Counted from the first letter of the stretch, positions 34,906 through 56,644 are shown. The stretch: 64,000 nucleotides of DNA from Clostridia bacterium (GCA_017399025.1 JAFQEK010000115.1:374-64373), one strand, 5' to 3'. The notes: generated from the sequence alone by a model not told the origin. A program made the numbers and translations.

Positions 34906-37900
34906 TTAATACGGGTTATTGATCGTGATCGTTGTAACCGCATTGCCGTTCAGGTCTTTCAGTGCCATACCGGAAAGGTTAACCGTAAATGTTACACCTT
35001 CATAGGTCAATGTCAATACGCTTGCAGAAATTGTGCCTGCTGCAGTCTTCGTGTCCGAAGCAGCTGTTCTGGAAGCATAGTAACCGATATTTCTGGAGCA
35101 ATTACCGTCAGCAGTCCAAGCAAAACCGGTTGTCTTGGTTGTGCCATTATAGACATGGACATTATCACCGAAATTCAATGCCGCCGAAGCTGCATTACCC
35201 AAACCGGAAAGTTTAATCGTAACACTCGGACGGGAGTAATTATGTCTGTAAGGATCGCATGTACTACCAGAGCCGCTTCTGCTACATCTGAAGTAAACTT
35301 CCGCGTAACCGCTGGCGAATGCAGCCGCTTTATGATTTTCCGTATGACTGTTATTTTGATTACTGTCTGTCGTATCTACCGCACCTGTGCCTGTGGGAGA
35401 AACTGCCGTAACAGCTACCGTCGGCAATGTCGAGGTTACCGTAATTGCGGACATTGTCTTATCTTCATACAAGCTGGTATCCGGATCGTTCGGAGAAGCT
35501 GCCACCGTTTTCAAGGATACACTGTACTGTCCTGCAAGATAGATTTCCTTTGTGGGAAGTTCCGCAGAATATACACCGTCGCCATCGGGGTCAGTCAAAG
35601 TTGCCTGAATCAGTTTGGATGCTATGCTATCATAACCGTTACCCGAAATGGTGTAATACTGATTCATGGTATCTCTGCTATGCGTAATGGTAAGACTGAG
35701 ATCGCCCAAAGCCTTGATAGGCTTATTTTCGAAGTCTACAAGAGAAACATCAATCACACCGTCACCGAAGAGAGTGTGTTTTTCAAGGAATGCACCCGTA
35801 AAGCCGGTGGTATAACCTTTACCACCCTCAACAGATGTTTTGATGGTAGCAATGATCTTAATCTTCAAAGCAGCCTGTTCTTCTTCCGTATAAGAAATAG
35901 AAAGGAATCCGCTTTCTTCGTTTGCCGCATCAAAGGCATCCGAGCCTGTCAGACTTGCCAAATTTGCATTCGACTGATAGAAGGTCTTATCCGTGTCTGT
36001 AACATTGGTAAACTTTACTTCAACCAATTGATAGAATCCGTCTGCAAACATGGATTTGTCTCCCAATTTGGGAATTTGGAAAGAGAAAATACCGCTTGTT
36101 TCATCAATCTGTACATATTCCTGAGATTGCAAAACAATATAACTTTCACTTCCGTCTGCAGCAACGACTTTGAATTTACCGAAAACCGAAGCCGAGCTTG
36201 CATGTTTGAATGTCAAATCCACTCTGGGATATTCATGTACCTGAGGATTGGAATTTGTAACCGCAACAAACTCGGAAATCGGAGCGTTTACACCCAGATA
36301 TTGATACGGATCTTTGGTTGCCGCAACAACTCTGGTTGCACCGATTGATGCCGTTACTTCCTGGTCGCCGGATTCCATGGGAATAATAACTTTGGTGAAT
36401 GCATACGAACCGGGCGCATTTACGGTCAAAGCCGTACCGGCATAGTTATCAGCGATAGGATCCCATTTCAGCTTCATTGTAATGTTACCGTAAATCAAGC
36501 TGATACCGCCTACACCACCGAGCTGTTTGATTTCTTTTCCTGTTTCATCATAAATTTCAAGTTTTGCATCAAATTTATGTTCTTTGCTGAAATAGAAATA
36601 AGTATGGACATCATTGGTTCTGTCATAACGGTATTCTTCATTTTCAGCAAAATCTGTGGGAGCTGTCAGCCAAACCTGTGTTTTCAATCCGAGAACAACC
36701 TCACGGATGAAAGGATTCACTTCGTAATATTCTCCGTCCAACAGGAGATAACGGAGCGTATACGTACCGCTGGCATTAAAAGTAACCTTTGCACTCCAAT
36801 CTCCGGAAGTGCCTTTCTGAACAAAGTTTACGTCAACGTTGACGTTATCTTCATTGGTAAAGATACCTTTCACTGTTTTCGGCATTGCGTAGCCTTCACT
36901 GGCTTTGATCGAAAGCGTAAAGGAATCGCTGACGTAGGAATCTGCTGTCATAAACGTGTAGTCCGGACCAAGATTGCTTTGCAAATTCTCGATTTTCAGA
37001 CCTTCAATGATAAATTCTATCGGCGTTTGCAGCAACCGCTCCTGTCCGTCAACCAAAACACTTCTCAAAATATACGTACCGGGAGTCGCAAACGTAAAAT
37101 CACAAACCCACTGATCGCCCGATTTTATAAAAGGAATATCTTCTTCGAAATAGAGAGAACCTTGGGTAGAGCTGATCTTACGCGTGAAATTCGCTTTCAC
37201 GCTGTTGGGCTCCATACCGTCAACCTTAACGGTAACCGTCTTGACATGTGTAATGCCAGACTGGGATTTATCTGCGATAGTTGCGGAAACGGTAATTTTC
37301 TCATCCATCAAAGCTTCGTCTTTCAAAGCTTCTTCGTCATATGTTGTACCAAATTGAATATTGAACTGACCTTTGATATCAGAAGATGCCAAAACGTCCT
37401 TATTTTCAATGGAAGTACCTTCCAGATAAATCAATGCAGAAATCAAAGCAGGGTCTCCGGTTTTCAAACCGGTAATCGTACGGTATGTGGTTTCCTCGCC
37501 TGTAATGGGATCCGTTACCGTCTGTTCTCCGTAACCGCTGTACAAAACAAGAGGAACCAAATGGCGTCCGTATTCAGAGAAACAGTATTGCGTATCCAAT
37601 TTTGCAACTGCAAGCAAATTACCGTTTGCATCGACAAAAGCAACACGCATAAGTTCAAGAACACCGAGAATGGTATTCAAGTCTGTCGGGTCTGCATAGA
37701 AAGTATAACAGCTTCCCGAACCTTGAGAGGTACTGTATTTCGCTTCATCCACACCGAAAGGCAGATCTTCGATATCCCAAATACGGTTGGAAGCGCTGTA
37801 ACCATTCGGAATTTTATTAATTTTCAGTTCAGGAGAACCGGAAATTTCTTTTTTTACCGTCGCGCGAAGCGTTTGATCTTCGTTGTAAAGCTTTTCTTCC

Positions 37901-39954: not shown

Positions 39955-40653
39955 TTATTGTAAATTTTTATCTTGAAAATGATAATTGTCTGCCTTTGAA
40001 CTGTCTATATCTGAACCGTGAGGCAAAGATGGAGGGTTCGCTTTCATCTGCGTTTCCATTTCCTCTCGGAGTTTTTTCATTTCTCGCTGTATTTTTTTCA
40101 GATTTTCATGTAAAATAAATGCCGCTATAATGACTACGGGAATGATAATCAAAGTGAAAAAGCCGATTCCGCTTGTCAAAACCGAATATGCATTCAAAAG
40201 GAAACTGTCTTCTCCCGTAACGGAAATGACTTTACCGATGAAGTTGGATTCTATTACATAATAGGAATCTTCACTGTTATTGGCATCGCCTCGCGTGGTC
40301 AATGCAACTTTTCCGTCAATGGTTCTGATATCCACAACACGGTGGGTAACGATATTTCCGTTCATATACGATTCCATGGAACGGAAACAAATGATATCTC
40401 CGACTTTAATTTTTTCAATGTCGGTTTCTTTATTGAGAATCAGCGCGCCGACAGGAATTGCCGGCTCCATACTGTCGGTTACAACGCGGAATACGCTGAA
40501 ACCGAAAATAGAAACATAACGTTTTGTCTGAATTTGAACGACTACGGTAAAGCAAAACGCGAGCGCCACAATCAGAAGAATGGTTGTGGAAATGGAGATT
40601 ATTTTCGATAATCGCGTTTTCTTTTGTTTTTGAGGATAGATTTCTTCGTTCAT
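39955..40653 (-). CDS. sipW: signal peptidase I, SipW (ER/archaeal) type
   Basis: N-terminal TM segment, SDSMEP catalytic Ser box, VTHRVV His box, TTRGDANNSED box, and a C-terminal TM segment. Confidence 0.85.
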   Translation of the reverse strand: MNEEIYPQKQKKTRLSKIISISTTILLIVALAFCFTVVVQIQTKRYVSIFGFSVFRVVTDSMEPAIPVGALILNKETDIEKIKVGDIICFRSMESYMNGNIVTHRVVDIRTIDGKVALTTRGDANNSEDSYYVIESNFIGKVISVTGEDSFLLNAYSVLTSGIGFFTLIIIPVVIIAAFILHENLKKIQREMKKLREEMETQMKANPPSLPHGSDIDSSKADNYHFQDKNLQ

Positions 40654-40720: not shown

Positions 40721-40738
40721 ACTTCAAGGAGATTTATC

Positions 40739-42817
40739 TTATTCTGTGGGTGTTTGTGTTGATTCTACTGTATATTGTCTGTTGTTTGTTTCGATGTAAT
40801 CGGCAATCACATCGCCGGGGAACATACAGTCTTTCAAAATGCAGTCGAAATCACCTAATGTCGTTTTTTCCGTGGAAAGAATCAGACACAGGTTATCTGT
40901 AGATGTTTTTGTTTGGAATGTACATCCATCAAACTCTGCATTCGCGTAAACCGTAACACCGCCGATAAATATACAGTTATCAAAGACGACGGTTTCCGCA
41001 TACGCGTAGGTATACGATCTGTCATCCGTAACCTTGACGACTTTTGATGTTGTATAAGACTTTTTGTTCTGAATAATAAGATTTTCAAAGAAAAACTTCG
41101 AACCGGGTTTGAAAGATGTCTTATAATCGCCTATATTTCCGAAATTGAAGCCCGATGCAGACTTTGTCTGACCTTTACCGAAGCTTTCACTCGTAACAAC
41201 ACTGTTCAAAACGAGCGTTGCCGTTGCGTTTTCACCGCCATAGGCTTTCACGGTAATCTCGTTACCGGTAAAACGCATTTCCTCTTTCAGTGCGACCGTT
41301 CCGTAAAGCAGCCATTCCTGCTTATCACTCGTCAGACATTGCACTGTATTCGGATGCATTCTGCCGTAAACCACCGCAGAGTGAAGCTCTGCATTGGTTT
41401 TGGTATCAACAAAAGTTAAGCTACCGCTATCGGAAGGAACGAACCGTCCGTAAAGTGTCTTATAAGGGTCATCATTACTATGGGGATCTGCTACGCCTTC
41501 CTGTGTCAAAGTATTTTTCAATATCTCAGACACCATGGGGTTTACGATCGATACGCATCCTTGGTTGGCTGTTCCGACAAACTCGCCCACACGCCAGGAA
41601 GCGCCCTCTTCAACACAAGCAATCGTTGTATTTTCCACAAAGCAATCAACAATGTATGTATTATTGCTTTGAGAAGCACTCGCATGACCAACGATACCGC
41701 CGGCAGAAGCACCTGTCAGCGTACAGCCGCGAACCGAACAATCTTCGATCCGAAAATCGGAAGTCTTCGTATAACCGACAATGCCGCCGGTTCTGGAATA
41801 TTCATTTGCAGCATTCGGAGCACTGCTGATTGTACTGTTCAGCAAATGACAGTTTCTGATGAGAACAGAACCTGATTTGAAATCTGCATTTGAAATAAAT
41901 GCGCCTGCATTTTCATAGTCGCTTGTGTCCAATGTCATTTCTGCTCCAATAATTGTGATATCTTCCAGCACGATTCTTGCCGCAGAAGCTTCAGATTTTA
42001 CGTTTCCGAACAAAGGTACTTTCAATCCCTTGATGAAGGCTGTCGATGTGCCCAAGGTTTCGGTATCTGCTTTGATTGTGATTGTTTGCATGACCTTATT
42101 GGGATCGTTGATGGTTACACCTGTAAAATCATAATCCGACAAATCAAAATGTCCTTGCAAAATAATCGTGATATCTTTGGAAAGGTCTGCCGATTCATTC
42201 AGCATGGACATGACGGCAATGAATTCCTCCGCGGTATTGATCAGATACGCGCCGTTTGCATCCGTTTGAATCTCGGAAAGCTCCGGAATGATCGCATCAG
42301 CCGCAGGTGTTTTATATCCGATCAAATGATCGGGAGATTTCACACCGCCGTTATTGCCGTTTTCCGTTTGATCATATTTCGATTTTGTCAGCTGATCGGC
42401 ATTTTGGTATTGTGCCCGTGTCAAACAGGATTCTCCGTTGAAGGTACAATCCTCATTCATGGCAAGAATACCGCCGTCTTCGCTGTAAAACATATTTTGT
42501 TTATCTGTAGTAACCGCCGTTTCTCCATTCAGAACGATTGCGGGATATTCCGTGCTGTTCATAAATTGGGAATTTTGAACGGTCAAAGCGTTGGTTCCGT
42601 TGGAAACCACGCAGGACTCTGCATCCTCTTTTGCCGTGAACGTACAGTTTTTGATCGTACAGTCATAGCCTTTATTGTCAAGAATCAAACAGAGATCGTT
42701 TGCCCTGAACGTTTCAAAGGTACAAGCGTCGAATACTGCGTTTCCGTATACAACCACACCGTCTTCAAACGTACAACTTGTATAAGATACGTCTTGTGCA
42801 AAAGCGTAGGTGTACAC
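40739..42817 (-). CDS. C-terminal part (third module) of a frameshifted giant GLUG / parallel beta-helix surface protein
   Basis: No signal peptide of its own. About 55-60% identical by eye to the second half of ORF 42765..45875. The reading frame stays open upstream to ~42838. Confidence 0.7.
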   Translation of the reverse strand: MYTYAFAQDVSYTSCTFEDGVVVYGNAVFDACTFETFRANDLCLILDNKGYDCTIKNCTFTAKEDAESCVVSNGTNALTVQNSQFMNSTEYPAIVLNGETAVTTDKQNMFYSEDGGILAMNEDCTFNGESCLTRAQYQNADQLTKSKYDQTENGNNGGVKSPDHLIGYKTPAADAIIPELSEIQTDANGAYLINTAEEFIAVMSMLNESADLSKDITIILQGHFDLSDYDFTGVTINDPNKVMQTITIKADTETLGTSTAFIKGLKVPLFGNVKSEASAARIVLEDITIIGAEMTLDTSDYENAGAFISNADFKSGSVLIRNCHLLNSTISSAPNAANEYSRTGGIVGYTKTSDFRIEDCSVRGCTLTGASAGGIVGHASASQSNNTYIVDCFVENTTIACVEEGASWRVGEFVGTANQGCVSIVNPMVSEILKNTLTQEGVADPHSNDDPYKTLYGRFVPSDSGSLTFVDTKTNAELHSAVVYGRMHPNTVQCLTSDKQEWLLYGTVALKEEMRFTGNEITVKAYGGENATATLVLNSVVTSESFGKGQTKSASGFNFGNIGDYKTSFKPGSKFFFENLIIQNKKSYTTSKVVKVTDDRSYTYAYAETVVFDNCIFIGGVTVYANAEFDGCTFQTKTSTDNLCLILSTEKTTLGDFDCILKDCMFPGDVIADYIETNNRQYTVESTQTPTE

Positions 42818-45800
42818 TCTGTCTGTCGTAGTATTTTATTGTACAAGATTTTTTGTTTTGAATCTTCAGATTTTCAAAATAAATCTTCGAATTCGGTTTG
42901 AAAGAAGTTTTCTTCGTATAAGCTCCGAAATTGAAGCCCGAAGGTGTTTTTGCCTGCCCCATACCAAAGCCATTGGTTTTAACCGTACTGTTCAGCAAAA
43001 TCGTTGCCGTTTTACCTTCAGCGTACGACTTCACGGTAATATCATTTCCCGTGAAACGCATTTCCTCGCTCACGCGCGCCGAATCATAAATCAGCCATAC
43101 TTGGCTTTCACTTGTCAGGAATTGCGCTGCATTCGGATCAAAACCGCCGTAAACCACGGCTGTATGCAATTCGGGATTGGTTTTGTTATCAACAAAAATC
43201 AGTTTACCTCTGTTGGCTGCCGAGAAACGACCGTAGAGGAAATAATTGGGGTCGCCGTTATTGCTGCTTCCTTGCGCTTTTGACACGCCATCGGTTGCAG
43301 TTTCTTGAATCAAATGATTTTCCAAAACCATAGGATTCACGATTGTGATGCCGCCTTGGTTGGCGGTACCGACAAATTCACCCACACGCCATGTGGCATC
43401 TTCCAGACAAGTCAAAGTATTTCCTTCCGCAAAGCAATCCACAATATGGGTTTCATTGCTTTGAGAAGCACTCGCATGCCCGACAATACTACCAACGGAG
43501 GCGCCTTCAAAGGTACATTCTCGAACCGAACAATCCGAAATCCGAACTTCGGAAGCATTGGTATATCCAATGATACCGCCAATTCTGGAATATTCGTCAC
43601 TTTCATTTTTTTCGCTTATAATACTGCTGTTCATCAAATGACAATTGGTAAGTTCCGCCGCAATTTTACAGTCCGAAACAAAGGCACCGCTGTTGGGATA
43701 ATCCGCAGTTGACAATTTCATATCGGAATGTATCACTGTGATATCTTCAAAAACAATTTTTGTTTGTGTCGATTTGGATTGCAAAACACCAAACCAAGGA
43801 GCGTTAAAGCCTTGAATGAAAGCTGTGGAAGTTCCCAATGCTTCGGTATCCGCTTCAATCGTAATCGTTTGCAATTTTTTGTTAACGTCATTGATAGAAA
43901 CGCTGTTCCAATCGTAACCACTAAGGTTGATATGGGTTTTCAGAATAATCCGATAATTGCCTTCGAGTGTGCTTGCGCCACTCTCATCCTTTTGATTCAG
44001 CATATTCATAACGGCGATAAATTCTTCTGCCGTATAAATCAGATATGCGCCGGTTTCATCTTTTTGAATGTTGGAAACATCGCCTGGAATTTCTTCCTGC
44101 ATAACACCGTCATAGATAATATCCGCATCGAAATCCTTGCTTGCGTTGTTTCCGTGTTCTGTACGATCCAACTGCGCTTTTGCCAAAACATCGGCATTTT
44201 GATATTGTTCCTTGGTCGGACAATAAAATTCGCTGTCGTTAAACGTACATGAATTTTCATTTTCTGCCAGGATACCGCCGGCTTTACTTGTAAAAAGATT
44301 GTTACCGTCGGTGATAATATTCATTTCATCGTTCACATAAACCGCAGGATTTGCAGATTGGTTGGTGAACTCGGAATTATACACCGCAAGAATCTGTTTT
44401 TTGCCGTCAATCAGCACACATCCTGCCGTACCTTCATTCGCCGTAATCTCACAGCTATCCGAAATCACACAAATGGCATTGGAATCGATTACGGTGTTCG
44501 GTGTAAAGAACCACAGACAATACTTTTCGGGATTTGTTTCGGTAATTTTGCAATCCGAAAAATACGCTGTATGAGGAACCGCAACACCGCCCTCAAATAC
44601 GCAGTTGTTATACACCGTGTTTCTTGCGTTTACGTATATATAATACGCGGCAGAAGAAAATTCAAAATCCTCTGCATTTTTTGTATTTTTTAATGTAATG
44701 TCCGTAAATTTCACGGACGAACTGTCTTGAAATTTAGTTGTGATAGAATTTTCTCCAAGTAAGCCGAAGTTAAAACCGGAAGTTCCCGACAATTCAATCA
44801 CAGCATTATTTTTTCCTACTATATCTACATGATTTCCTTGGAAGCGGATTTCATCCGTCAATTGTAACGTGCCGTAAACCGTCCAAAGCTGATTAAAAGT
44901 ATCTGAATTGAAACAATCCGCCGCAACCTGTGCGAAACCGCAGTAGGCTTCTACCGTTGCAAGCTCGGTATTCACAAGATTGAGAATACCATGGTTGCCG
45001 TCAGCTGTAAAACTGCCGTATGGCGTATTTACGGATACGGCTTCGCCATTTTGGAGCAATCTGTTGCCTTCGCACACGGGATCTGCGATCGCTGTCGTAC
45101 CTCCCTCTATGGTTCCGATGATTTCTCCGACGGACGAGCCTGCAATTGTTGAACCGCTGACGGTACAACCTTTAACCAGCACCTCGGCATTGGTATTTGC
45201 GGTTCCGATCATACCGCCAACCTTACCGCCTGAAACCGAGCTGTCAAGCAACCGGCAATTTCGGATCAAAACGGGCATGGTTGCATCGGAAACGAAAGCA
45301 CCGACAGCCTCGGTATTTTCGCCTTTGATCTCAGCTTCCATAAGCGTGATATCGCACAACTCAATGCTTGCCGTCGAAGCTCCTCCGCTGAAAAGTGCGT
45401 CGGTCAAGCCCTTGATGAAAACAGTTGGAGTTTTTAACCTCTCGGTATCTGCATAAATCTTGATTTTCTCAATTTTTGAGGAAGATTCAACATCAACGCT
45501 CTCCAACCCTTTATCCTCAGCCGATGCTCTCCAGATAGAAGTCGGTTCCAATGAGATATGGGTTTGCAAACATATCTCAATATTTCCTGTAATATCTCCT
45601 CGGTCAATCGCGCGCATAACAGCAACGAATTCTTCCGCAGACTTGACGGTATATTTACCGGCATCATCCGCCTTGAGAGGGATATTGTTCAGCGTTTCTT
45701 CCGATACCGTAACGGTATCATAAAAAACCTTGGGAATATCCACAGCGATATTGGAACCGGATACGCTCGGTGCTTTGGAAATAACCATCCACGCATATGC

Positions 45801-45875
45801 CGATATAATCACCATCAATCCGGAAATCAATAAAATGTAGAAGGATGAAATCAATCTCCATAAGGAATGCTTCAT
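42765..45875 (-). CDS. N-terminal part of a frameshifted giant GLUG / parallel beta-helix surface protein with SipW-type signal peptide
   Basis: N-terminus LISGLMVIISAYAWMVISKAPSVSG. Two modules each carry AEEF(V/I)AVM, T(A/V)FIKG, and GLUG-like (V/I/T)GG(M/I)IG motifs in NC/C-x-V repeat strands. ATG overlaps the stop of the upstream gene (ATGA). Confidence 0.8.
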   Translation of the reverse strand: MKHSLWRLISSFYILLISGLMVIISAYAWMVISKAPSVSGSNIAVDIPKVFYDTVTVSEETLNNIPLKADDAGKYTVKSAEEFVAVMRAIDRGDITGNIEICLQTHISLEPTSIWRASAEDKGLESVDVESSSKIEKIKIYADTERLKTPTVFIKGLTDALFSGGASTASIELCDITLMEAEIKGENTEAVGAFVSDATMPVLIRNCRLLDSSVSGGKVGGMIGTANTNAEVLVKGCTVSGSTIAGSSVGEIIGTIEGGTTAIADPVCEGNRLLQNGEAVSVNTPYGSFTADGNHGILNLVNTELATVEAYCGFAQVAADCFNSDTFNQLWTVYGTLQLTDEIRFQGNHVDIVGKNNAVIELSGTSGFNFGLLGENSITTKFQDSSSVKFTDITLKNTKNAEDFEFSSAAYYIYVNARNTVYNNCVFEGGVAVPHTAYFSDCKITETNPEKYCLWFFTPNTVIDSNAICVISDSCEITANEGTAGCVLIDGKKQILAVYNSEFTNQSANPAVYVNDEMNIITDGNNLFTSKAGGILAENENSCTFNDSEFYCPTKEQYQNADVLAKAQLDRTEHGNNASKDFDADIIYDGVMQEEIPGDVSNIQKDETGAYLIYTAEEFIAVMNMLNQKDESGASTLEGNYRIILKTHINLSGYDWNSVSINDVNKKLQTITIEADTEALGTSTAFIQGFNAPWFGVLQSKSTQTKIVFEDITVIHSDMKLSTADYPNSGAFVSDCKIAAELTNCHLMNSSIISEKNESDEYSRIGGIIGYTNASEVRISDCSVRECTFEGASVGSIVGHASASQSNETHIVDCFAEGNTLTCLEDATWRVGEFVGTANQGGITIVNPMVLENHLIQETATDGVSKAQGSSNNGDPNYFLYGRFSAANRGKLIFVDNKTNPELHTAVVYGGFDPNAAQFLTSESQVWLIYDSARVSEEMRFTGNDITVKSYAEGKTATILLNSTVKTNGFGMGQAKTPSGFNFGAYTKKTSFKPNSKIYFENLKIQNKKSCTIKYYDRQSVHLRFCTRRILYKLYV

Positions 45876-47725
45876 CCGTTACCTCCATTACGTGGTTTTT
45901 TTTGTGCGTTATCGTTTTTCCTTTGCTTGCGGAGTTTGCGTTCTTCTTCCAAACGCGCCTGTTCCTCCGCATATTCTTTTCTTTTATTTTTTTGTTGTTT
46001 GAGCATTGCACCGAAATTGCGGACTTCACCGATATAAGGCTTCATCTGCTCTTCGTCTTTTCTGCGCTCCGCTTCTTCAGCCGCACGCCGTTTTGCTTCT
46101 TCAGCCTCTCTGCGTGCGCGTTCTTCTGCTTCTTTTTGCTGCGCTTTCAGGATTCTTTCCCGTTCGAGATTTGCTTTAATCTCTTCCTGACGGCGGCGGA
46201 TACGCTCCGCTTCATCCCTCTTACGCTGTTCCTGATCTTCCAAAATCTTTGCCGCGTCTTCAAATTCCTGGCGTTTTGCATTCAAGCGGATTTCTTCCGC
46301 TTCTTTGGCTCTGAGAGCAAGTTTCTTTTCAAGCTGATCTGTAAATTCCGCAAGCTCTTTCTTGAAAAGTTTTCCGCGGCGGCGGTCTTCGATTTCTCTT
46401 TCCAACCGTTCCACATCGCGGCGGCGCTGTTCTTCTTCTTCCTCTTTTCGGATACGCTCCGCTTCTTTTTCCTGCTCAATACGCAGCCGTTCCTCTTCCG
46501 CTTCTTTTTCTTGGCGGAGACGTTCTTCTTCTTCTTTTTTGCGCCGTTCCTGTTCTTCCACAATACGTCTGCGTTCTGCCTCTTCTTCTGCCAGAAGCTG
46601 TGCTTTCGTAAGCTCTTCGATCAGAACCTTACGGATTTCAACATCGGGCAAGTCGTAATCCTCCGTCATTTCTTCAATGACTTCCGTGATGAATTTCGGC
46701 TTCATCGTACGCTTTTTATCCTTGGCGGGCGTGGGCAGTACGCGGTCGCTTTCGTCCTCCAGATAATTTTTGAGAATGATGTAATTGAAAAGGACATTGT
46801 GGAAAATATCTCTTTGAAATGCTTCATTGATCAGCGGACTTTGTTCCGTGATCTTAATGGCGTAGCCAACATCGTGGTAGCTGTGCAAAAATTCGTAAAG
46901 CTTAACGATTGCCTTGTAATCGGGGTTTTTTTTCAGTACGTTGGTTTTGACGATCGCGCCTTTGATACGGCTTGCTTTGGCAAGTCCCATGGCAAAGGGG
47001 GTTGACATAAAGCCCGTTAACAAACGGTCCAGACGGGCAATGCGTTCCAGCATATTTCTGTGCTTTTCATCGGTAGCAAGGATATCGTCCCGTTCACGGA
47101 TATGCAAAAACATATCCATGTGAAGCTGTTCTCTTGCGCTGAGCATATCGGAGGAAACTTTCAGTTTGGCACCGTATTCATCGTTCAGCGTATTCATCAG
47201 TGCTTCATATCTGATTTTAACAAAGTGGTAAGCGTCCTCCAGGACAGTAATTGCCAGACGGTTTTCATAGATTACGGTAGAGTCATCGCGCAGCTTTTGC
47301 ATAAGCTTACTGGGACTGACCTCGCCCGTTGCCGCATCGAAATCATCAATCATCGTCGAGCCGTGCTGCGCCAGATGGCGGACAACGGAAGAGTCGCTTT
47401 TTTTTGCAAGCCCTACGTTCATGATGAGTTCTTCTTCCTGAATGACGTTTCTCGGACGGCTGATGACGTTCTGAATAGCCGGAAGCGCTTCTTCAATGGC
47501 TTCCACCCAGGATTCATCAATCAGCTTTTCCATTTTTCTGTTGGAAAATTGGATCCGGTTATCGGCGCCGGCAATTGCATCCATGAAATATTCGTAAAAG
47601 TCGGTGCTGCCCAAGGCGCGGATGATGCTTTTCGTATATCTGACGTAAACGGAATCGATCAGCGATAATTCCTTTGCCTTCCCTTCCGCTTCTTCCGCGG
47701 ATATTATTTGTTTTGATTCAGCCAT
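45872..47725 (-). CDS. hypothetical protein: ~390-aa globular N-domain (possible McrC/DUF2357-like partner) plus ~210-aa E/R/K-rich helix
   Basis: Sits adjacent to the McrB-like ATPase. STVIYENRLAITVLEDAYHF resembles the (T/P)ENR motif of McrC/DUF2357. The tail (EEEAERRRIVEEQERRKKEEEERLRQEKEAEEERLR...) runs to the C-terminus. Confidence 0.6.
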   Translation of the reverse strand: MAESKQIISAEEAEGKAKELSLIDSVYVRYTKSIIRALGSTDFYEYFMDAIAGADNRIQFSNRKMEKLIDESWVEAIEEALPAIQNVISRPRNVIQEEELIMNVGLAKKSDSSVVRHLAQHGSTMIDDFDAATGEVSPSKLMQKLRDDSTVIYENRLAITVLEDAYHFVKIRYEALMNTLNDEYGAKLKVSSDMLSAREQLHMDMFLHIRERDDILATDEKHRNMLERIARLDRLLTGFMSTPFAMGLAKASRIKGAIVKTNVLKKNPDYKAIVKLYEFLHSYHDVGYAIKITEQSPLINEAFQRDIFHNVLFNYIILKNYLEDESDRVLPTPAKDKKRTMKPKFITEVIEEMTEDYDLPDVEIRKVLIEELTKAQLLAEEEAERRRIVEEQERRKKEEEERLRQEKEAEEERLRIEQEKEAERIRKEEEEEQRRRDVERLEREIEDRRRGKLFKKELAEFTDQLEKKLALRAKEAEEIRLNAKRQEFEDAAKILEDQEQRKRDEAERIRRRQEEIKANLERERILKAQQKEAEERARREAEEAKRRAAEEAERRKDEEQMKPYIGEVRNFGAMLKQQKNKRKEYAEEQARLEEERKLRKQRKNDNAQKKPRNGGNG

Positions 47726-47850
47726 TCCCGGCTCCTTTCCGAATACATCTGCCGACGATTCGTTTTCTTATTTCTTTTGATTCCCTCACAAAGAAAGCTT
47801 TTTTCTCAAAGAGCAAGCCATCTTCATGAGGGAATCTTTCATGACGGAGA

Positions 47851-49413
47851 TCAGTTCATTTTTTTCAGATACTCAACGTAATCTTTACAGATCGCCATCG
47901 TATTTTTACCGAATTGTTTATCCAGGTAAGTTGAAAATCTTGTCAATTCATCTTTCATATAGCCAAGGTTCAAAGATTCGAATTTACGGAGAACCTTTTT
48001 GGCAACCATAAAGTCAATGGCTTCGATTTCCGTTCCGCCGCATCCCATATAGCAAGGAACGTAATCTTTCAGCTGTTTCATAATACGGTTACCGAAAGCC
48101 AATTTAAAGTTATTGATCAGATATTCATTCATTTCTTCCAGCTTCCTCATATTTTCATCGGAAACTGTATATTGCGCTTTCGCTTGATCAAAAAGCTCGT
48201 TCAAGCGATCAGCCGTGATATAAATCGGTTCTGCCGTACCCTCATCAAAAACAGCTGCTCTGGAATCCAAGTCGATCGGAATCGCACGGTCGTAAACCTT
48301 ATCCGCAACGGCGAACGTCGAGTCGTCGTTGTTGATCGTGCCGACAAACCAAGTGGTGTTGGGGATCTGAAGCTTGCCCTCTTTAATGTGAACGGGGTCG
48401 TTATCCCACATCGCGGTAACAACGTCGATTTTCCATTCTTCCTGTCTGGGCATTTCCAGAATGGAAAGCATTTCCGCAAAGTAATATTCCACACGTGCAA
48501 TATTCATTTCATCGAGAATGACAATATGGGGGTCTCTCTTGAAATTTGCTTCATAAATCGCTTTCAGAAAGTCTGTTTCGGTATATTTCTTTGTAAATTC
48601 ATTGAAATAACCGTAAAGCTCGGTACGTTCACGCCATGCAGGCTGTACGGAAACGACGGTGGAGTCGTTTTGAACAAATTTACCGAAAGCGTAAGGCAGA
48701 GAGGTTTTACCCGTACCGGAAATACCCTGCAAAATAACGATTCTTGCCGCACCGAGCGCTGCAATGAAATGGCGCAACAAACGAATATCATAATAAAGGT
48801 GAAGCTGGCTTGCCGCATACAAACGGAAGCGCGCACAAAATTCGGGGAGAGTAATCTCTGTTTCGTATGTGGGAACAACATAATCGGGGCTCTTAAACTG
48901 ATTATCAACCGTGGTCAAACGGAAGAATCGGCTTTCCAAAGGATCCACGGGAGGTTTATCCATGGTATTCCGATTGGAATCGTGGTCAATTTCTTCGCCG
49001 TCCTTATCGTCCAAAAATTCCTTGGAAGCATCTCCGCCGAGCATTTCCATTCGCATGGAAAGCAAACGATCCTTTTCGTAATTGGCGCGTAGCAGATCCT
49101 TTTGCATTTGCTGAACCTGTTTTTTCAGTTCATCGTACTTCTGGACGGGAACACGGAAACGGAAAAGACGTTTCAAAAGCTTGACGAGGAAAACGATGGC
49201 AATGATAATCAACGCAATCAAAGCCAGATTCGCAATCAGAAGCATAATCCATTCCAGTGTTGTAAACTCGCCTGTGCTTTCCTGAATGATTTCCATTCTT
49301 CCCGGGAAGTTTACAAGTCTGAATAAGAACTGGAAAACCGCGCTGAAAATGTTGATGAAATCATGAAACAGCTGTCCGATATCAGCAATAAAATAACGCA
49401 AAAAATTATCCAT
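47851..49413 (-). CDS. membrane-tethered McrB-like (AAA_5) AAA+ ATPase
   Basis: One TM segment (WIMLLIANLALIALIIIAIVFLV) plus a coiled coil. Walker A ILQGISGTGKTS, Walker B HIVILDEMNIARVEYYFAEMLS, and FVGTINNDDSTFAVADKVYDRA match the McrB/AAA_5 pattern. No DNA-binding N-domain recognised. Confidence 0.75.
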   Translation of the reverse strand: MDNFLRYFIADIGQLFHDFINIFSAVFQFLFRLVNFPGRMEIIQESTGEFTTLEWIMLLIANLALIALIIIAIVFLVKLLKRLFRFRVPVQKYDELKKQVQQMQKDLLRANYEKDRLLSMRMEMLGGDASKEFLDDKDGEEIDHDSNRNTMDKPPVDPLESRFFRLTTVDNQFKSPDYVVPTYETEITLPEFCARFRLYAASQLHLYYDIRLLRHFIAALGAARIVILQGISGTGKTSLPYAFGKFVQNDSTVVSVQPAWRERTELYGYFNEFTKKYTETDFLKAIYEANFKRDPHIVILDEMNIARVEYYFAEMLSILEMPRQEEWKIDVVTAMWDNDPVHIKEGKLQIPNTTWFVGTINNDDSTFAVADKVYDRAIPIDLDSRAAVFDEGTAEPIYITADRLNELFDQAKAQYTVSDENMRKLEEMNEYLINNFKLAFGNRIMKQLKDYVPCYMGCGGTEIEAIDFMVAKKVLRKFESLNLGYMKDELTRFSTYLDKQFGKNTMAICKDYVEYLKKMN

Positions 49414-49444: not shown

Positions 49445-50302
49445 TTATTTGTTTTTGGAATCTTCGGATTTTTCGCCGTTGTTTTTCACCATATCGGCAA
49501 GAAGCTCCGCACGCAGTTTTTCACGAAGCTCGGCTTCCATTTCCGCGCGTTCTTTTTCCATTGCTGCCCGTCGGATCTCTTCGCGTTCTTTTTCATCGCG
49601 GATCTGAGATTCGATCAGGTCTTCGGTTCTTCCTCTTTCTTGCTCGTATTTGATCAGCATTTTCACGTTCTGATATTCAAAGAGAACGCGGAAGAACTGA
49701 ACGAGATGGAAAATAAAGAAGAGGAGTACGGGCAGAACGATAACGATCATAAAGCCCGTGGGTGTTTGCAGGTAATCCAGAACCTTACCGACACCGGGAA
49801 CACGGAATTTGTACACACCGACAACTTCCGACTCGTGAACGGTCAAAGGGTCTGCCTGTTCGCTCTTTTCACCCATGGTTTCAAAAATCAGATAATCGCC
49901 GCCGTCGTAAATACCCGCAATTTTATGCGTATTCAGCACACGGTTGCCTTCAATGATTGTCCAATAGGTGATGATATCGCCCACACGGAGCTCTCTGTAA
50001 TCCTTCACTGCAACGTCGATGATCAGATCACCGGGTTTCAAGGTCGGATACATGGAGTCTGTCTGAACGGTGAACGGACGGACACCGAGAATGCTCGGCA
50101 CGCCGTTGCCTGACGTGGATACAAAAGAAACGTAAGTACAAACAGCCGCAAGAAGGATCGCGATTACAAGGAGCACGTTGACAACAATGTTAATGATTTT
50201 TTTCACATTGCGCTTTTTCGGCTCTGTGTCCTGTCCCTGATCCTGCTCCGGTACTTCCGGTACATCCGTAACTTCCGTATCGGTGGAAAGTTTTTTCTTC
50301 AT
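49445..50302 (-). CDS. divergent SipW-type signal peptidase I paralogue with C-terminal TM and E/R/K tail
   Basis: TM segment, TDSMYPTLKPGD Ser box, NTHKIAGI His box. TMGEKSEQADP replaces the GDxNxxxD box. A second TM segment follows, then IRDEKEREEIRRAAMEKERAEMEAELREKLRAE. Confidence 0.75.
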   Translation of the reverse strand: MKKKLSTDTEVTDVPEVPEQDQGQDTEPKKRNVKKIINIVVNVLLVIAILLAAVCTYVSFVSTSGNGVPSILGVRPFTVQTDSMYPTLKPGDLIIDVAVKDYRELRVGDIITYWTIIEGNRVLNTHKIAGIYDGGDYLIFETMGEKSEQADPLTVHESEVVGVYKFRVPGVGKVLDYLQTPTGFMIVIVLPVLLFFIFHLVQFFRVLFEYQNVKMLIKYEQERGRTEDLIESQIRDEKEREEIRRAAMEKERAEMEAELREKLRAELLADMVKNNGEKSEDSKNK

Positions 50303-51743: not shown

Positions 51744-53879
51744 TCAGGTTGTGGGGTTCTGAAGACCGGAATAATCCATGGGTTTCAGTTCTGCGGAGCT
51801 GGAGAACTGGAGATTCAGGTTACCGGAGGTGGAAAGATTGGAGAGCGCTGCAACGTCTGCGTTTGTGATGGTGGTACCGTCAAGGTAAACGTAAACGGAG
51901 ATGTAGGTTGCTTCGTTCTGACCGAGGTCAACGATGTTCTGATCTTCAAGGATTTCACCCCAAGTAAGTGTAGCGGTTTCCAATTCACTGTAAATAGGTT
52001 TGGTAACATCACAGTTTTTCTCATTCCATACAATGATGTTTTCTTCAGGAGTATCTGCGGTTGCTTCTTCGTATCCTGCGAGCGCTTTATCAGCTACAGC
52101 CTCAATTGCCTGAAGCTTAACAGCCGCTTTTACGGTAGAACCGTCAGAGGTTGCAGTAGCGGTATCGAGATAAGCGCCGACAAGAAGTTCGCCCGTCTTT
52201 GTATCAACGAATACGAGTTTGATGTTTTTCATCAGATTCTTAACGGAGTCATCGCCGAAACCGGCCTGTGTGGAAAATTCCATGTAGCTACCGCCGCCCA
52301 TAGTTGCAGAAGTTGCATCGTTATTACTACCATAGATACGGTCTGTCGCAGCCTGCTGGAGTTTCAGAGTAGAGCCTGCAGCGTTGGTACGGAATACGAA
52401 GTCGAGAACGTATGCGTAAGTATCGGTAATAACCGCATTCGCATCTGCACCCTCCTTGGGATCGGGTTTGAGTGCGGCAGTGTAATTTCCAAGATTTGTA
52501 ATCTTACCATCAGCCAAATCGGTGTACATGTTGATATTCATGTTTTCCATTTTCAAATTATTACCATTAACAGTAACGTCAATATTTGCTCTGAAGTTTA
52601 CGTTGATGTTCTTGGTTACGCTTGCGATGTCTGCGTATACACCGGGGTCTTCTTTAGCAGACATACCGATCTTAACGCCTTCCTGCGCAACACCGAACGC
52701 CCAATTGTAAACACTGCCGTTTGTCTGCATCGCTTTAACACTCTCATAGGTTTCGCCGTTGATGGTGATCTTATTGATATCCATGAGAGGAGCAAGAATT
52801 GCAGTCAGGTGATTCCAAGTTGCTTTTCCGCCTTCAACAGCAATAGCCTCATTATATTTGCCCTGTGCAGTGCCTACAGCGGTTTCGATTTTTGCAACAG
52901 TGGTTGCAACCGTTTGCAGTTCTTCGGGAACACTGAAAGTTACGTCAAGGTCAGCACCGTTTTCACCGAGACCTGCAACGGTAAAGGTAACCTCCGCTGC
53001 ACCGGATTTCAGCTGATCAAACATGGTATCCCAATTATCATTGAATGTGGAAACCATCAGTTCAAAATTGGCATCTGTTTCATTGGACTTTGTATCTGCA
53101 AGAGCAATCAGCATGAAATTCTGGATTACTTCTTCCAAGTAACCGGGAACTTCTGCCAATTTGCTGATCATTGCCTGCAAGGGAGCGAATTCGTTGTCTG
53201 TAGTAACATCGAACTCGGGATTATCATTGGTAGCGCCCTTGAGGATCAAGGTAACAAGTTTGCCGCCATTTGCTCTCAAAGAGGTGCTTGCCGCATTGAG
53301 AGCAAGGTCAAGGTTTGTTTTTACGTTAGAGGAAGAGGTTGCGTACTGGAGTTCCTGTGCGCTCATGCTGGAAACTGTACCCAAAGCTCTGACACCGTAG
53401 CCTTCGGTTGCACCGGTTGCCTGAAGAGTAAAGCCATTGTTTCCGTTCCATGTGCCGTAGAAGCCGTTTTTCTCAACGGACGATACTCTACCGTCGGAAC
53501 CGTAAACGGGAGTATAAAGAGGAATTTCGTCAACCTGGCTGTTTTTTGTTACAGCAAGCACGGAGGGTTTCAAAATAATGGTATTCAAACCGTAAGCTGC
53601 ATTACCGAGGTCGATAATGTTACCCCATGTAGCGTTTTTGTCTACAACATTCGTAAGACCGGTACCGTTACCGGGAAGCGTATTGGTGGTATTCAACGCG
53701 ATTTCCAAGTTACCGTTCGCGCCAACCTGTGTGGTAATGCCGGTAACTTCAGGCGCTGTAGAAAGAGTAAACCATGCATATGTAGAAGAAACTACCATGA
53801 AGGATGCAACGAGAAGCATTGCAACTGCCGCAAGGAGTTTACTTCTAATAGACAGGAAGCTTTTCTGAGAAGTATTCAT
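51744..53879 (-). CDS. 711-aa TasA-superfamily-like protein with SipW-type signal peptide (major subunit candidate)
   Basis: N-terminus AVAMLLVASFMVVSSTYAWFTLSTAPEVTGITTQVGANGNLEIAL. C-terminus ISVYVYLDGTTITNAD...SGNLNLQFSSS. As I recall TasA, it has ASGTLDLS near the N-terminus and QGNSIKLQFSFEA near the C-terminus. Strong RBS AAAGGAG. Confidence 0.8.
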   Translation of the reverse strand: MNTSQKSFLSIRSKLLAAVAMLLVASFMVVSSTYAWFTLSTAPEVTGITTQVGANGNLEIALNTTNTLPGNGTGLTNVVDKNATWGNIIDLGNAAYGLNTIILKPSVLAVTKNSQVDEIPLYTPVYGSDGRVSSVEKNGFYGTWNGNNGFTLQATGATEGYGVRALGTVSSMSAQELQYATSSSNVKTNLDLALNAASTSLRANGGKLVTLILKGATNDNPEFDVTTDNEFAPLQAMISKLAEVPGYLEEVIQNFMLIALADTKSNETDANFELMVSTFNDNWDTMFDQLKSGAAEVTFTVAGLGENGADLDVTFSVPEELQTVATTVAKIETAVGTAQGKYNEAIAVEGGKATWNHLTAILAPLMDINKITINGETYESVKAMQTNGSVYNWAFGVAQEGVKIGMSAKEDPGVYADIASVTKNINVNFRANIDVTVNGNNLKMENMNINMYTDLADGKITNLGNYTAALKPDPKEGADANAVITDTYAYVLDFVFRTNAAGSTLKLQQAATDRIYGSNNDATSATMGGGSYMEFSTQAGFGDDSVKNLMKNIKLVFVDTKTGELLVGAYLDTATATSDGSTVKAAVKLQAIEAVADKALAGYEEATADTPEENIIVWNEKNCDVTKPIYSELETATLTWGEILEDQNIVDLGQNEATYISVYVYLDGTTITNADVAALSNLSTSGNLNLQFSSSAELKPMDYSGLQNPTT

Positions 53880-54011: not shown

Positions 54012-55046
54012 TTATTGTTCTTCGTGGATATTCAAAATCTTGAAATTCATTTCAAGACCGAAATGTCCTCCGATCAGATCGTTTGTGCAGTCGGGGTCAT
54101 CACCCTCAATCCAAAGCACAACCGTATATTTGTGTACATCCATCGGTTTCACGGTAAACTGTCTGCCTGTCGCAACCACGGTTTCGGATTTGAAAGGTTC
54201 CGAAATCACACGGTAAAAAGGAATCGTGCTGTTTTCCGTTTCGATGGTTTCGAACTGTTCTTCGGGATATTTTGCATATTCGCCAAAGATCATTTTCGGA
54301 TAGCCGTGCAGATTATCGTCAAGAGGAGGAAGGATTTCGGGCATACCGTCCCTCTTGGCTTCCGCGTGTAACGTCATTTCGTCATCCTCAAAAATCATAA
54401 CCCAACAAGCCTGAGAAATATTCTTGCTTTCCGAGTTGATCGAAACATCCCATTCGTAATCCACGACGGATTTACCGTCGTTTCTGATATAGAAGGTATA
54501 TGCGAAGTAGTCGCCGCCGTGATAATAGCCCTCCGCATCCAAAACGTCCTCGGAAATTTCCATCATGGAAATGCACATCGCACCCTCCAAGGGCGTACTG
54601 TAAAGGTAAGAGCTTGGCTTTGTGAAAGCGGATGATTCACTCACGGAAAAACCTTCGCGGAAAAGGTCATCGGTCAGGTTGATCGTAAAATGACCTTTCA
54701 TTTTTGTAACCAAAGACATCACAAAGAACGTCGTCAGCACAAGGAGCAGGGAGGCAATCAGCGCCCAAAGCCATCTTGCTTTCAGAAACAGAAGAATGGC
54801 TCCACCTGTTCTCTTATCAAAATAGAGTCCCATAGAGGAAGCTGTCAATTCAAAATCCTTTCGGCTTTTGATTCCGACATCGCGAAGCTCCTTTCGGATT
54901 CTTTTTCTTCCCTCTCGGATTTCTCTCACTTCATCTTCCGTGAGAACGACTCCTGCGCGTTTTTTTTTGAAAAGTCTTTTTTGTTCGTTAGTTTTCGGGG
55001 ATTCTATGCCTTCATCGGAAGGCTTTTTCTTTTTTTCATCACTCAT
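54012..55046 (-). CDS. 344-aa signal-anchored paralogue: K/R-rich cytoplasmic N-tail, one TM, TasA-like C-terminal block
   Basis: About 85 aa of charged N-terminus, then TM segment LWALIASLLLVLTTFFVMSLV, then GHFTINLT. The C-terminus YTVVLWIEGDDPDCTNDLIGGHFGLEMNFKI matches the paralogue block. Confidence 0.7.
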   Translation of the reverse strand: MSDEKKKKPSDEGIESPKTNEQKRLFKKKRAGVVLTEDEVREIREGRKRIRKELRDVGIKSRKDFELTASSMGLYFDKRTGGAILLFLKARWLWALIASLLLVLTTFFVMSLVTKMKGHFTINLTDDLFREGFSVSESSAFTKPSSYLYSTPLEGAMCISMMEISEDVLDAEGYYHGGDYFAYTFYIRNDGKSVVDYEWDVSINSESKNISQACWVMIFEDDEMTLHAEAKRDGMPEILPPLDDNLHGYPKMIFGEYAKYPEEQFETIETENSTIPFYRVISEPFKSETVVATGRQFTVKPMDVHKYTVVLWIEGDDPDCTNDLIGGHFGLEMNFKILNIHEEQ

Positions 55047-56499
55047 TTTCTCGTTCCCTTAAAAGCGAGTCGCGAATCAATGTTTCTTCGTCAACCAAAG
55101 GACCTGTTGCAGCGCTGACAAAATGTTTTACGCCGCAGGCAACAAGCCAACGAATGGCATCCTCCGTTTCGGCATCCTTGGCATACGCCGTGATCCCCTT
55201 TTCCGGCAAGGATGTCAAAAGGTCTGCGATATCCCTTTTGAGATACAGATCGGGACGCAAGCGGACATACTTGAAACCAAATTCTTCAATACGTTCGAGC
55301 GGCAGAGTTTCCGGATTCCAGGAATCCACCATCAGCGTAATACCATTTTCAAGATAGCTTTTCAGAATTTCTTCCAATTCTTCGTTTGCGTTGATCACAA
55401 CAAAATCGGGAATCGTCAAAATCAGACATTTTTTATCAACAGGTTGATCTTCAAAAAGTTGTTCGAATTTAGAAAGCTGGGACACATCCATATAGAAAGA
55501 CGGAATCATATCCAGAACGATGGCATCGATTGCAAGCTTGCAATTTTCAATGCGCAAAAGCGTGTCCGCCGCTTCATAAAGAAAATATGTGGAAATTTCG
55601 GGAATCAATTCAAGCCGACGGAGCTGCGGCTCAATGATTTCAATGTTTTCTCTTTCCGAGGGGTTGTCGGCAATGCCTCCGAACCACGGAATTGCTTCAT
55701 ATGCGTTAATTTTTCCTTCCAAGCCGTTTACCATCGGACGGTAACTCAGTCCCATCGGACGATCCGGTTTCTTATCAACGAGAGGGATGGTTTTCGGCAA
55801 GGTCATTGTATAGTGAACATAGTTCAGATAAACCTGATGGCATTTTGCTTTGCAAGCCGTCAGGACCTTGATCAGATCGGGAGAAAATCCCGTACCCGCC
55901 TGCGCGAGCAGCGCTTCATAAGCTTCTTCAAAAGGATTTTCGGATTTTGTTTCGGAAGCAAGTCTGTCTAACTCTTTTGCAAGACCGACAATCTGTGCAA
56001 TCGGACTGATTGCGTTTTCCTTTCTTCCATCGGGATATCCGGAGCCGTCCCAACGCTCCATGTGCTGCTGACAGCTTTCATGGATCATCAGCCACGGGAT
56101 GCTTTCCGTTACAAATTCGCCGTTTCTTTTTTCTTTGATATGGAGAATTTTTTTCTGCAAGGAAATGGTCAGCAGTCGGCCGTCCGTGGTATATTTTTTA
56201 TAAACTTCTTTTTCCTCTTCGGTAAAATCGTTCTGCCAGATCTGATATTCGTGAGGCACGAGCGCTTTTCCGATCTGATGATACATGCCGCATTTATAAG
56301 CGAGATCCGCAAGCTTAATTCGCATACGTTCTGCACCCGCAGGAGTCTGCACACCGTAAGAGGAGGCGCAGGCCTGAGCAAAAAGCACTTGCGTATAGGA
56401 CGCAACGCGAACAGACTGCTGTCTGATCACGGGAGCCAGCGCGCGGAACGCTTCATCCCACGTATTATATTCTTTTCGTGTCCAAGTTTGCTCTTTCAC
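55039..56499 (-). CDS. HD-GYP-like plus EAL-like two-domain protein, both apparently degenerate (c-di-GMP-related)
   Basis: ERWDGSGYPDG is the GYP signature, but MYHQIGK replaces the HD(I/V)GK box. The C-terminal half is EAL-like (AYEAIPW, ...VDSWNPE, AKDAETED). Start chosen at GTG 56499 behind GAAAGGAA; the maximal ORF extends to a TTG at 56601. Confidence 0.65.
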   Translation of the reverse strand: MKEQTWTRKEYNTWDEAFRALAPVIRQQSVRVASYTQVLFAQACASSYGVQTPAGAERMRIKLADLAYKCGMYHQIGKALVPHEYQIWQNDFTEEEKEVYKKYTTDGRLLTISLQKKILHIKEKRNGEFVTESIPWLMIHESCQQHMERWDGSGYPDGRKENAISPIAQIVGLAKELDRLASETKSENPFEEAYEALLAQAGTGFSPDLIKVLTACKAKCHQVYLNYVHYTMTLPKTIPLVDKKPDRPMGLSYRPMVNGLEGKINAYEAIPWFGGIADNPSERENIEIIEPQLRRLELIPEISTYFLYEAADTLLRIENCKLAIDAIVLDMIPSFYMDVSQLSKFEQLFEDQPVDKKCLILTIPDFVVINANEELEEILKSYLENGITLMVDSWNPETLPLERIEEFGFKYVRLRPDLYLKRDIADLLTSLPEKGITAYAKDAETEDAIRWLVACGVKHFVSAATGPLVDEETLIRDSLLRERENE

Positions 56500-56554
56500 A
56501 AGCCGTTCCTTTCTGTTTTCGTGTTCTGATTTGGAGATAGTCGTTTTTTGGATA

Positions 56555-56595
56555 AATTGTGCCCGATCGATTTTTGATTTCGGCCGGGCACAATT
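56555..56595 (-). promoter_or_regulatory. 11-bp stem intercistronic hairpin between the FIVAR protein gene and the HD-GYP/EAL gene
   Basis: AATTGTGCCCG / CGGGCACAATT with a ~19-nt loop. Confidence 0.45.
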
Positions 56596-56644
56596 TTTCA
56601 ATGATCATTTATCGCGTTCGCGATATAAAAATTCTGATACAGAA

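Follow-up and report, generated by a model that had tools for sequence, protein, structure and literature searches.

A predicted membrane-anchored McrB-like NTPase and its McrC-like partner form a CoCoPALM-type module fixed in a SipW signal peptidase operon of gut Clostridia

In this study, we report the in silico analysis of a two-gene module located in a 64,000-nucleotide (nt) stretch of DNA from a Clostridia bacterium (GCA_017399025.1 JAFQEK010000115.1:374-64373; the window, meaning the whole of this stretch). The first gene encodes a McrB-like AAA+ nucleoside triphosphatase (NTPase) and the second one a McrC-like protein, hereafter called the partner. The pair was found to be a fixed core member of an operon that encodes SipW-type signal peptidases and secreted proteins, and not an inserted island. 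It is a module of the CoCoPALM type, a class named in 2024 (Bell et al., 2024; PMC11090510) of which it is a further member. With a probability of about 0.6, we propose that the module acts as a cytoplasmic NTP-driven switch or scaffold for the SipW-dependent assembly of surface fibres.

The 520-amino-acid (aa) NTPase had been described in an earlier note, prepared from the DNA sequence alone, as a McrB-like ATPase in which the usual N-terminal DNA reader is replaced by a transmembrane (TM) helix and a coiled coil. All the motifs and coordinates quoted there were recovered, with GISGTGKTS at residue 230, VILDEMNIARVEYYFAEML at 298, GTINNDDSTF at 358 and ADKVYDRA at 370. The protein matched the Pfam family AAA_5 (E-value 2.7e-5, 24.6 bits, cutoff 22 bits), and the only PDB family retrieved, either with the single sequence or with the family profile, was McrB of E. 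coli (6hz4, 6ut6 and 7vsr; E-value about 2e-4), in an alignment which includes both Walker motifs (A and B) as well as the signature motif. This signature reads N361-N-D363-D364-S-T in the window protein and takes the form N-x-D-[D/E]-S-T, with a variable x, across 150 family representatives. It must be noted that the ungapped HMMER alignment to E. coli McrB also allows NNDD to be read as NxxD. The NTPase is likely to be active, because Walker A (GISGTGKT), Walker B (ILDEMN), NNDDST, D371 and R376 were invariant in an alignment of 24 relatives which are 66-87% identical to the window protein.

With respect to the N-terminal region, a single strong TM segment was detected at residues 59-77 (Kyte-Doolittle 3.21). 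Residues 1-56 have a net charge of -4, while the TM segment is followed by a cluster of +5 (LKRLFRFR...); given this distribution, the positive-inside rule would leave the AAA+ domain in the cytoplasm. No DNA-binding family was matched by residues 1-160, which consist of hydrophobic helices, the TM segment, a helix and an acidic linker, in keeping with the replacement of the DNA reader put forward in the earlier note. The AlphaFold2 (AF2) models were built from alignments of close relatives (24 for the NTPase and 30 for the partner). In that of the NTPase, three helices (2-45, 52-83 and 90-125) are followed by an acidic linker without order, a core of the alpha/beta type and a C-terminal domain made up of helices. 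As far as can be read from its sequence, the protein belongs to the NxD branch of McrB-like AAA+ NTPases, retains all the catalytic motifs and is predicted to be anchored in the membrane so that the ATPase domain faces the cytoplasm.

The 617-aa partner gave no Pfam match when searched in full length. Its first 375 aa alone matched DUF2357, the N-terminal domain of McrC (E-value 5e-7, 29.7 bits, cutoff 23.3), PF09823 is precomputed on many of its relatives, and residues 73-281 aligned by BLASTP to the DUF2357 part of a McrC-like (CnuC-like) protein that adjoins a soluble CoCoNuT-type relative of the NTPase. The YENR motif, from which the DUF2357/McrC-like character of the protein had originally been suspected, is located at residue 153. 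The invariant residues of the family were Y153-E-N155 together with F60-S-N-R63, K67 and D70, the latter group lying in a predicted beta-hairpin. By analogy, this hairpin is a plausible counterpart of the finger of McrC which enters the McrB ring.

No nuclease was matched by the partner in Pfam (E-value up to 10), in the PDB profile search or by Foldseek, and searching the PDB sequences with the partner family profile returned coiled-coil noise only. An invariant D...(D/E)xK was also absent from the 30-sequence partner alignment. In addition, only about 80 partly disordered residues separate DUF2357 from the terminal helix, and these are therefore too few for a PD-(D/E)xK domain. These results agree with the absence of that motif previously judged by eye. 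The partner appears to keep only the N-terminal DUF2357 domain of McrC followed by a very long charged helix, and to have no PD-(D/E)xK domain; the model is of low confidence and a tiny remnant could be present.

The C-terminal tail of the partner was modelled by AF2 as one continuous helix of 247 aa (residues 363-609). It had been correctly recognized as a helix rich in E, R and K, its length having been underestimated at about 210 aa. These three residues make up 57% of the tail and hydrophobic ones 17%, and opposite-charge i/i+4 pairs amounted to 0.29 per residue versus 0.04 in the N-domain. Since heptad periodicity was not significant either (p = 0.07), the tail resembles an ER/K single alpha-helix more closely than a coiled coil of the classical type, and it would be about 37 nm long if fully helical. 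The homologues of the partner range from about 370 to 895 aa in total, with tails of about 0 to about 500 residues, and the tails found in Ruminococcus match coiled-coil models of the crescentin, tropomyosin and DivIC types.

The family is very large, with at least 8,000 clusters at 90% identity retrieved for the NTPase and 1,553 clusters for the partner. A separate search of 1.84 billion representative proteins gave 8,331 matches to the NTPase. At least 581 species-representative genomes carry the cluster, and the carriers belong to Oscillospiraceae, Ruminococcus and Lachnospiraceae as well as to metagenome-assembled genomes (MAGs) of Bacilli and Mycoplasmatota. Most of these carriers are uncultured members of Oscillospiraceae, Ruminococcus and Lachnospiraceae from the gut and the rumen, while Lachnospiraceae bacterium 10-1 is cultured. 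The full-length NTPase matches show the same architecture with one TM segment.

Eighty loci from species-representative genomes were annotated by BLASTP against the window proteins. In 72 out of 73 loci the partner gene lay directly 3' of the NTPase gene, the median gap being 27 nt; in the sole exception (L034, 9863-12175) the NTPase gene is followed by a homologue of the 711-aa secreted protein of the window and not by the partner. Among the loci with adequate flanks, a SipW gene was present on the same strand in 53 of 54, a survey of synteny with SipW having been proposed in the earlier note, and a homologue of the 329-aa or the 344-aa protein of the window in all 54. In Lachnospiraceae the operon is compact and tightly packed, with the order HD_5, 344-like, 329-like, McrB-like, McrC-like, SipW and three proteins of 256-354 aa, two of the three having N-termini such as ...GGTFAWY... 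or ...SATYGWY.... Among the cluster genes, that of the NTPase is the best conserved, with a median identity in the closer loci (L003-L040) of 64%, followed by SipW (60%), the partner (55%), the HD/EAL protein (54%), the two core proteins of 329 and 344 aa (45-46%) and the variable 711-aa subunit (33%). One MAG, Faecousia sp. T1900044749, carries two NTPase/partner clusters on different contigs (L074 and L077), and the system can therefore be duplicated within one genome.

Given this conserved synteny, observed in about 80 species-level genomes, and the fact that the NTPase is the best conserved gene, a chance insertion is ruled out, and the pattern is unlike that of a typical defence island. 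It is well supported that the pair is a fixed core member of the operon, as the earlier note had anticipated. That an ordinary type IV restriction pair entered the surface-protein operon of this lineage by accident is hardly credible. The McrBC ancestry is all that speaks for such an insertion, which is refuted by the synteny found in 72/73, 53/54 and 54/54 loci across distant Bacillota; neither a DNA-binding nor a nuclease domain was found in the pair, and its guanine plus cytosine (G+C) content (0.445-0.461) matches that of its flanks (0.43-0.47). The organization of the cluster in the window is provided in Table 1.

Table 1. Genes and other features of the cluster in the order in which they are transcribed; positions refer to the window and residue ranges to the encoded proteins.
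Position	Strand	Feature	Length	Remarks
	-	1701-aa protein and 465-aa surface protein	1701 aa; 465 aa	First in transcription order, before the 55039..56601 gene
55039..56601	-	HD_5 (HD-GYP-like) + EAL protein	520 aa	First conserved gene of the cluster
54012..55046	-	Membrane protein	344 aa	Core cluster member
51744..53879	-	Variable secreted protein	711 aa	
50421..51410	-	Secreted or anchored protein	329 aa	Core cluster member
49445..50302	-	SipW/archaeal-type signal peptidase I		Directly upstream of the NTPase gene
47851..49413	-	McrB-like AAA+ NTPase	520 aa	Predicted parts: hydrophobic helices at the N-terminus; TM segment 59-77; juxtamembrane helix (about 90-125); acidic linker of low complexity (about 126-160); core of the AAA+ type (about 189-381); C-terminal domain made up of helices (401-519)
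47726..47850	-	Intergenic spacer between NTPase and partner	125 nt	Long stable RNA hairpin
45872..47725	-	McrC-like (DUF2357) partner	617 aa	Predicted parts: DUF2357 about 25-281; short region 282-362; E/R/K-rich helix 363-609
40739..45875	-	Large repeat/beta-helix-like secreted protein		Split into 1036-aa and 692-aa open reading frames
39955..40653	-	Second SipW-type signal peptidase I		
34906..39930	-	Secreted protein, variable cargo	1674 aa	Signal-like N-terminal motif

When compared with the McrBC system of E. coli, the window pair shares the AAA+ core, the Walker A and B motifs, an N..D signature followed by a conserved Arg, and a separate partner with the McrC N-terminal domain encoded directly downstream. 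However, the NTPase carries a TM helix in place of the N-terminal DNA-binding domain, its signature is NxD and not NxxD, the partner has no PD-(D/E)xK nuclease that could be found, and the context is a secretion/surface operon rather than restriction-modification. The closest published system is that of the CoCoPALMs, in which an NxD GTPase is fused to an FtsB-like TM segment and coiled coil, is tied to genes of the signal peptidase family, and has coiled-coil or helical extensions in both its McrB and McrC homologues (Bell et al., 2024; PMC11090510). According to the same authors, the branch is defined by the NxD variant, which is mostly followed by E or a second D, and the CoCoPALMs were classed as 'CoCoNuT-like' in one paragraph, their analysis being deferred to a forthcoming paper. 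No follow-up paper was found in the literature searched. The window pair agrees with this description in having an NxD-type NTPase with an N-terminal TM segment and helix, a McrC homologue with a long helical extension in addition to the NTPase helix 90-125, and a family placement beside the CoCoNuTs. The association with signal peptidases is also tight, since 31 nt separate the end of the upstream SipW gene from the start of the NTPase gene and the second SipW gene is found about 5 kb downstream of the pair. HMMER did not recover the published FtsB homology in the N-terminus of the window protein, which nevertheless has the TM segment and the helix. Therefore, the pair is a CoCoPALM-type module, and the newness claimed in the earlier note does not hold, given that both the architecture and the association had already been published. 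Beyond what has been reported for the class, the peptidases of the window are of the SipW/archaeal type, the partner tail is ER/K-rich without clear heptads, and the conserved core is wider, including the HD-GYP/EAL gene, two paralogous membrane/secreted proteins and cargo with the signal motif.

The FtsB homology reported for the N-terminal TM segment and coiled coil (Bell et al., 2024; PMC11090510) would suit a positional or cell-division scaffold, in which the FtsB-like N-terminus targets the ring to the septum or the poles, the partner helix is a cytoskeletal ruler placing the secretion site, and there is little direct role in processing or polymerisation. The length range of the partner tails and the coiled-coil matches of those from Ruminococcus point in the same direction. 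We regard this explanation as rather improbable, given that the N-terminal 160 aa of the NTPase gave no FtsB/DivIC match (E-value up to 10), no division genes occur in the conserved neighbourhood, and the tail of the window partner has the appearance of an ER/K single helix and lacks significant heptads.

The CoCoNuTs (CnuB/CnuC) belong to the same NxD branch, and likewise have coiled-coil extensions and McrC homologues in which the nuclease has been lost or inactivated. In contrast to the window pair, with its TM anchor, its SipW genes and no nuclease found, their NTPases are soluble and always lie beside genes for a nuclease (HEPN or another one), a superfamily 1 (SF1) helicase or TerY-P. 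The more distant relatives of the window NTPase have just its AAA+ and C-terminal parts in common with it and form two-TM, four-TM and soluble (700-800 aa) groups, and N-x-D-[D/E]-S-T is kept in every one of these groups. The gene of the nearest soluble relative examined (P0287, a single case) has VWA, kinase and PP2C genes together with a large SF1 helicase as its neighbours, which is a CoCoNuT type II/III context. After a four-TM relative of 658 aa (L085, 133-4261) come a protein of 517 aa and another one of the SLOG (LDcluster4) family, a context that points to a conflict system and not to a surface operon. Two-TM relatives were found as a tandem pair (L086, 4692-12923), with a 465-aa protein and its 604-aa DUF2357-like partner preceding a 493-aa copy; they adjoin a 1141-aa protein with transglutaminase and AgI-II domains and a giant leucine-rich-repeat surface protein, and no SipW gene was detected within the 17 kb examined.

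In this regard, it must be considered whether the window pair is a membrane-anchored immune system which has kept the defence role of McrBC and the CoCoNuTs and which may protect the fibre or pilus, itself a likely receptor for phages or site of DNA entry. At the membrane, such a system might sense invading nucleic acid or a protein of the phage and trigger abortive infection or a block of secretion, which would require an effector that is not a PD-(D/E)xK nuclease. This is an unlikely explanation in our judgement. It draws on the NxD branch, whose members characterized by context are CoCoNuT defence systems, on the SLOG-family gene, typical of conflict systems, next to the four-TM relative, and on the treatment of the CoCoPALMs as 'CoCoNuT-like' (Bell et al., 2024; PMC11090510). 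However, no nuclease, helicase, HEPN domain or recognisable effector was found among the scanned cluster proteins (the nine encoded from 39955 to 55046 plus those of 1674, 520 and 465 aa). Moreover, the gene order is fixed across families and orders, with the NTPase as the most conserved gene, while defence islands are usually patchy and fast-evolving.

The same explanation could also call upon the PADLOC candidate model PDC-M26A, which the NTPase matched at 5.5e-44. That match is partial, its best stretch covering only profile positions 314-439 of 724, i.e., the AAA+ core, and the model matches every NxD-branch relative tested equally well (1e-35 to 1e-47). For both reasons PDC-M26A was rejected as a family assignment. 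The partner matched no PADLOC model, PDC-M26 components included, and no literature describing PDC-M26 was found.

All the genes from about 34.9 to 63.2 kb of the window are encoded on the minus strand. Regarding the two signal peptidases, they scored 83.4 bits (upstream copy) and 97.4 bits (downstream copy) against TIGR02228 (cutoff 51.85) and remained below the cutoff of the Bacillus SipW equivalog model (87 and 84 bits versus 190). In both paralogues a second TM segment is followed by a charged cytoplasmic tail, of 80 aa in the upstream copy and 52 aa in the downstream one; in the families drawn from loci L001-L082 the median tail lengths were 72 and 59 aa, about 42% of the residues being charged. 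Such tails are unusual for a signal peptidase and are a candidate docking site for the NTPase complex. The 344-aa protein consists of a basic cytoplasmic N-terminal segment (median of 64 aa and net charge of +10 in its family), one TM segment and an ectodomain, and the basic segment may be another contact for the cytoplasmic NTPase complex.

The ectodomains of the 329- and 344-aa proteins are homologous (hhalign probability 98%, E-value 2e-13) and end in W(L/I)EGxDxxCTN, which in the 329-aa protein reads WLEGQDxxCTN, with W289, E291, G292 and D294 invariant in its family. The N-termini of the 329-aa (about 110 residues) and 711-aa (about 130 aa) proteins are homologous as well (hhalign probability 99.7%), that of the 329-aa protein containing the signal-like motif ...STYTWFSLS..., and the three proteins have in common an N-terminal (S/T)xYxWF segment and the C-terminal motif. 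From these profile-profile homologies it follows that the cluster carries the genes of a paralogous family in which the ends are shared and the middles vary, an arrangement that is frequent in pilin sets. The 711-aa protein is a candidate for the major subunit. The 1674-aa protein has the same signal-like motif in its N-terminus (..TAFAWTTLS..). Neither the 329-, 344-, 711-, 1036-, 692- and 1674-aa proteins nor the 256-259-aa proteins of the Lachnospiraceae bacterium 10-1 locus (L057; KE159821.1, about 116.6-138.2 kb) had any sequence match in Pfam, NCBIfam or the PDB, and no Pfam matches are on record for the relatives of the neighbour proteins. On sequence grounds, the 329-, 344- and 711-aa set is an undescribed family of secreted/membrane proteins.

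In Bacillus subtilis, a SipW-type signal peptidase is encoded with secreted substrates in the tapA-sipW-tasA biofilm-fibre operon, which is not known to include an NTPase. The window cluster resembles this operon in the location of SipW-type peptidases beside secreted proteins, and the N-termini of its products, in which a hydrophobic stretch is followed by (S/T)xYxW(F/Y), as in ...GGTFAWY... and ...STYAWF..., resemble the TasA-type SipW signal. It is, however, much larger and includes the HD-GYP/EAL gene. No sequence match to TasA/camelysin-family (Peptidase_M73) subunits was obtained with the secreted proteins of the window or with the 256-259-aa proteins mentioned above, using phmmer, family profiles against the PDB, and Pfam and NCBIfam at permissive thresholds. 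The earlier note had placed the pair between a sipW paralogue and SipW substrates. SipW-type peptidases do lie on both sides, but the terms substrate and fibre derive only from the shared N-terminal signal-like motif.

The HD_5 and EAL protein is likely a regulator linked to cyclic di-GMP (c-di-GMP). Its version in Lachnospiraceae is a 221-aa protein with HD_5 only (L057, 7374-8039), and the EAL half is therefore dispensable. The repeat-protein gene is translationally coupled to the partner gene, whose stop codon overlaps its start (ATGA), as previously noted. Its 1036-aa and 692-aa open reading frames (ORFs) are one gene, frameshifted at an A-run near 42,835 (window 42765-42860, minus strand), where past ...QNKKS the homologous sequence runs on in another frame (..TTDRVYTYAFAQDV..). 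At the same position, the 94%-identical closest relative (L088, 13537-18957) carries one ORF of 1806 aa. An assembly error, a pseudogene or phase variation could account for the frameshift. Residues 412-1012 of the 1036-aa ORF share 51% identity with residues 2-589 of the 692-aa ORF, and an internal duplication of about 600 aa can therefore be recognized.

The hairpin predicted in the spacer between the NTPase and partner genes has a free energy of -44.4 kcal/mol (z -4.5) and no U-tract after it. It is retained in the closest relative, with some stem positions changed, and missing from most of the other loci, which have the short median gap indicated above. This hairpin may be an element of mRNA processing or stability which sets the ratio of expression between the NTPase and its partner. 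A scan of the operon for promoters and terminators was uninformative, the terminator counts being near the shuffle expectation.

In attention to the above indicated, the proposed role of the pair in surface-fibre assembly can be described as follows. This McrBC-derived module appears to have lost both its DNA reader and its nuclease. The NTPase would form a hexameric ring under the membrane, hung on stalks made of the TM segment and the helix, and the DUF2357 domain of the partner would insert into this ring and stimulate NTP hydrolysis, as in McrBC. The complex would not cut DNA and would instead be an NTP-driven switch or scaffold linking the cytoplasm to SipW-dependent processing and to the assembly of a surface fibre or pilus. 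Coupling would possibly be brought about by the charged SipW tails, by the basic tail of the 344-aa protein and by the c-di-GMP state, and the ER/K-rich helix of the partner may act as a spacer or interaction arm. A more ambitious version, which we put forward tentatively and with somewhat more doubt than confidence, is that this would be the first McrBC derivative with a non-defence job. It would be a membrane-anchored, NTP-driven hexameric motor or switch whose nuclease-less McrC plug carries an ER/K single-helix 'ruler', gating SipW processing and the polymerisation of a so far unrecognised family of surface fibres or pili, a family which would be widespread in gut Clostridia and to which no relation of TasA can be detected.

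Several observations weigh against the proposed role in fibre assembly. The AF2 models are of low confidence, with mean values of the per-residue confidence score (pLDDT) of 62.7 for the NTPase and 66.0 for the partner, and it is therefore mainly from the sequence that the domain boundaries were drawn and a nuclease remnant was judged to be absent. When compared with the PDB by Foldseek, the model of the NTPase gave only generic AAA+ folds (e.g., MCM, Vps4 and BrxL), and that of the partner did not recover McrC, with a best E-value of 0.24. Thus, the modelling of both proteins suggested in the earlier note predicted the long helix of the partner, but it neither confirmed the McrB and McrC folds nor excluded a nuclease remnant. 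In addition, no Pfam match to FtsB or DivIC was given by hmmscan for residues 1-160 of the NTPase, and a TasA-like or fibre-forming nature of the neighbours was not supported by any of the sequence methods used. Finally, the closest relatives outside the clade are apparently defence or conflict systems, and a defence function could therefore persist in the pair.

McrBC is the textbook GTP-dependent restriction enzyme and, if the proposed role is true, a defence machine would have been re-used as machinery of the cell envelope. The novelty in this respect lies with the CoCoPALM class rather than with the instance found in the window. The function can be addressed experimentally, since at least one carrier, Lachnospiraceae bacterium 10-1, is cultured. 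For the carriers that live in the gut and the rumen, surface fibres matter for adhesion and colonisation.

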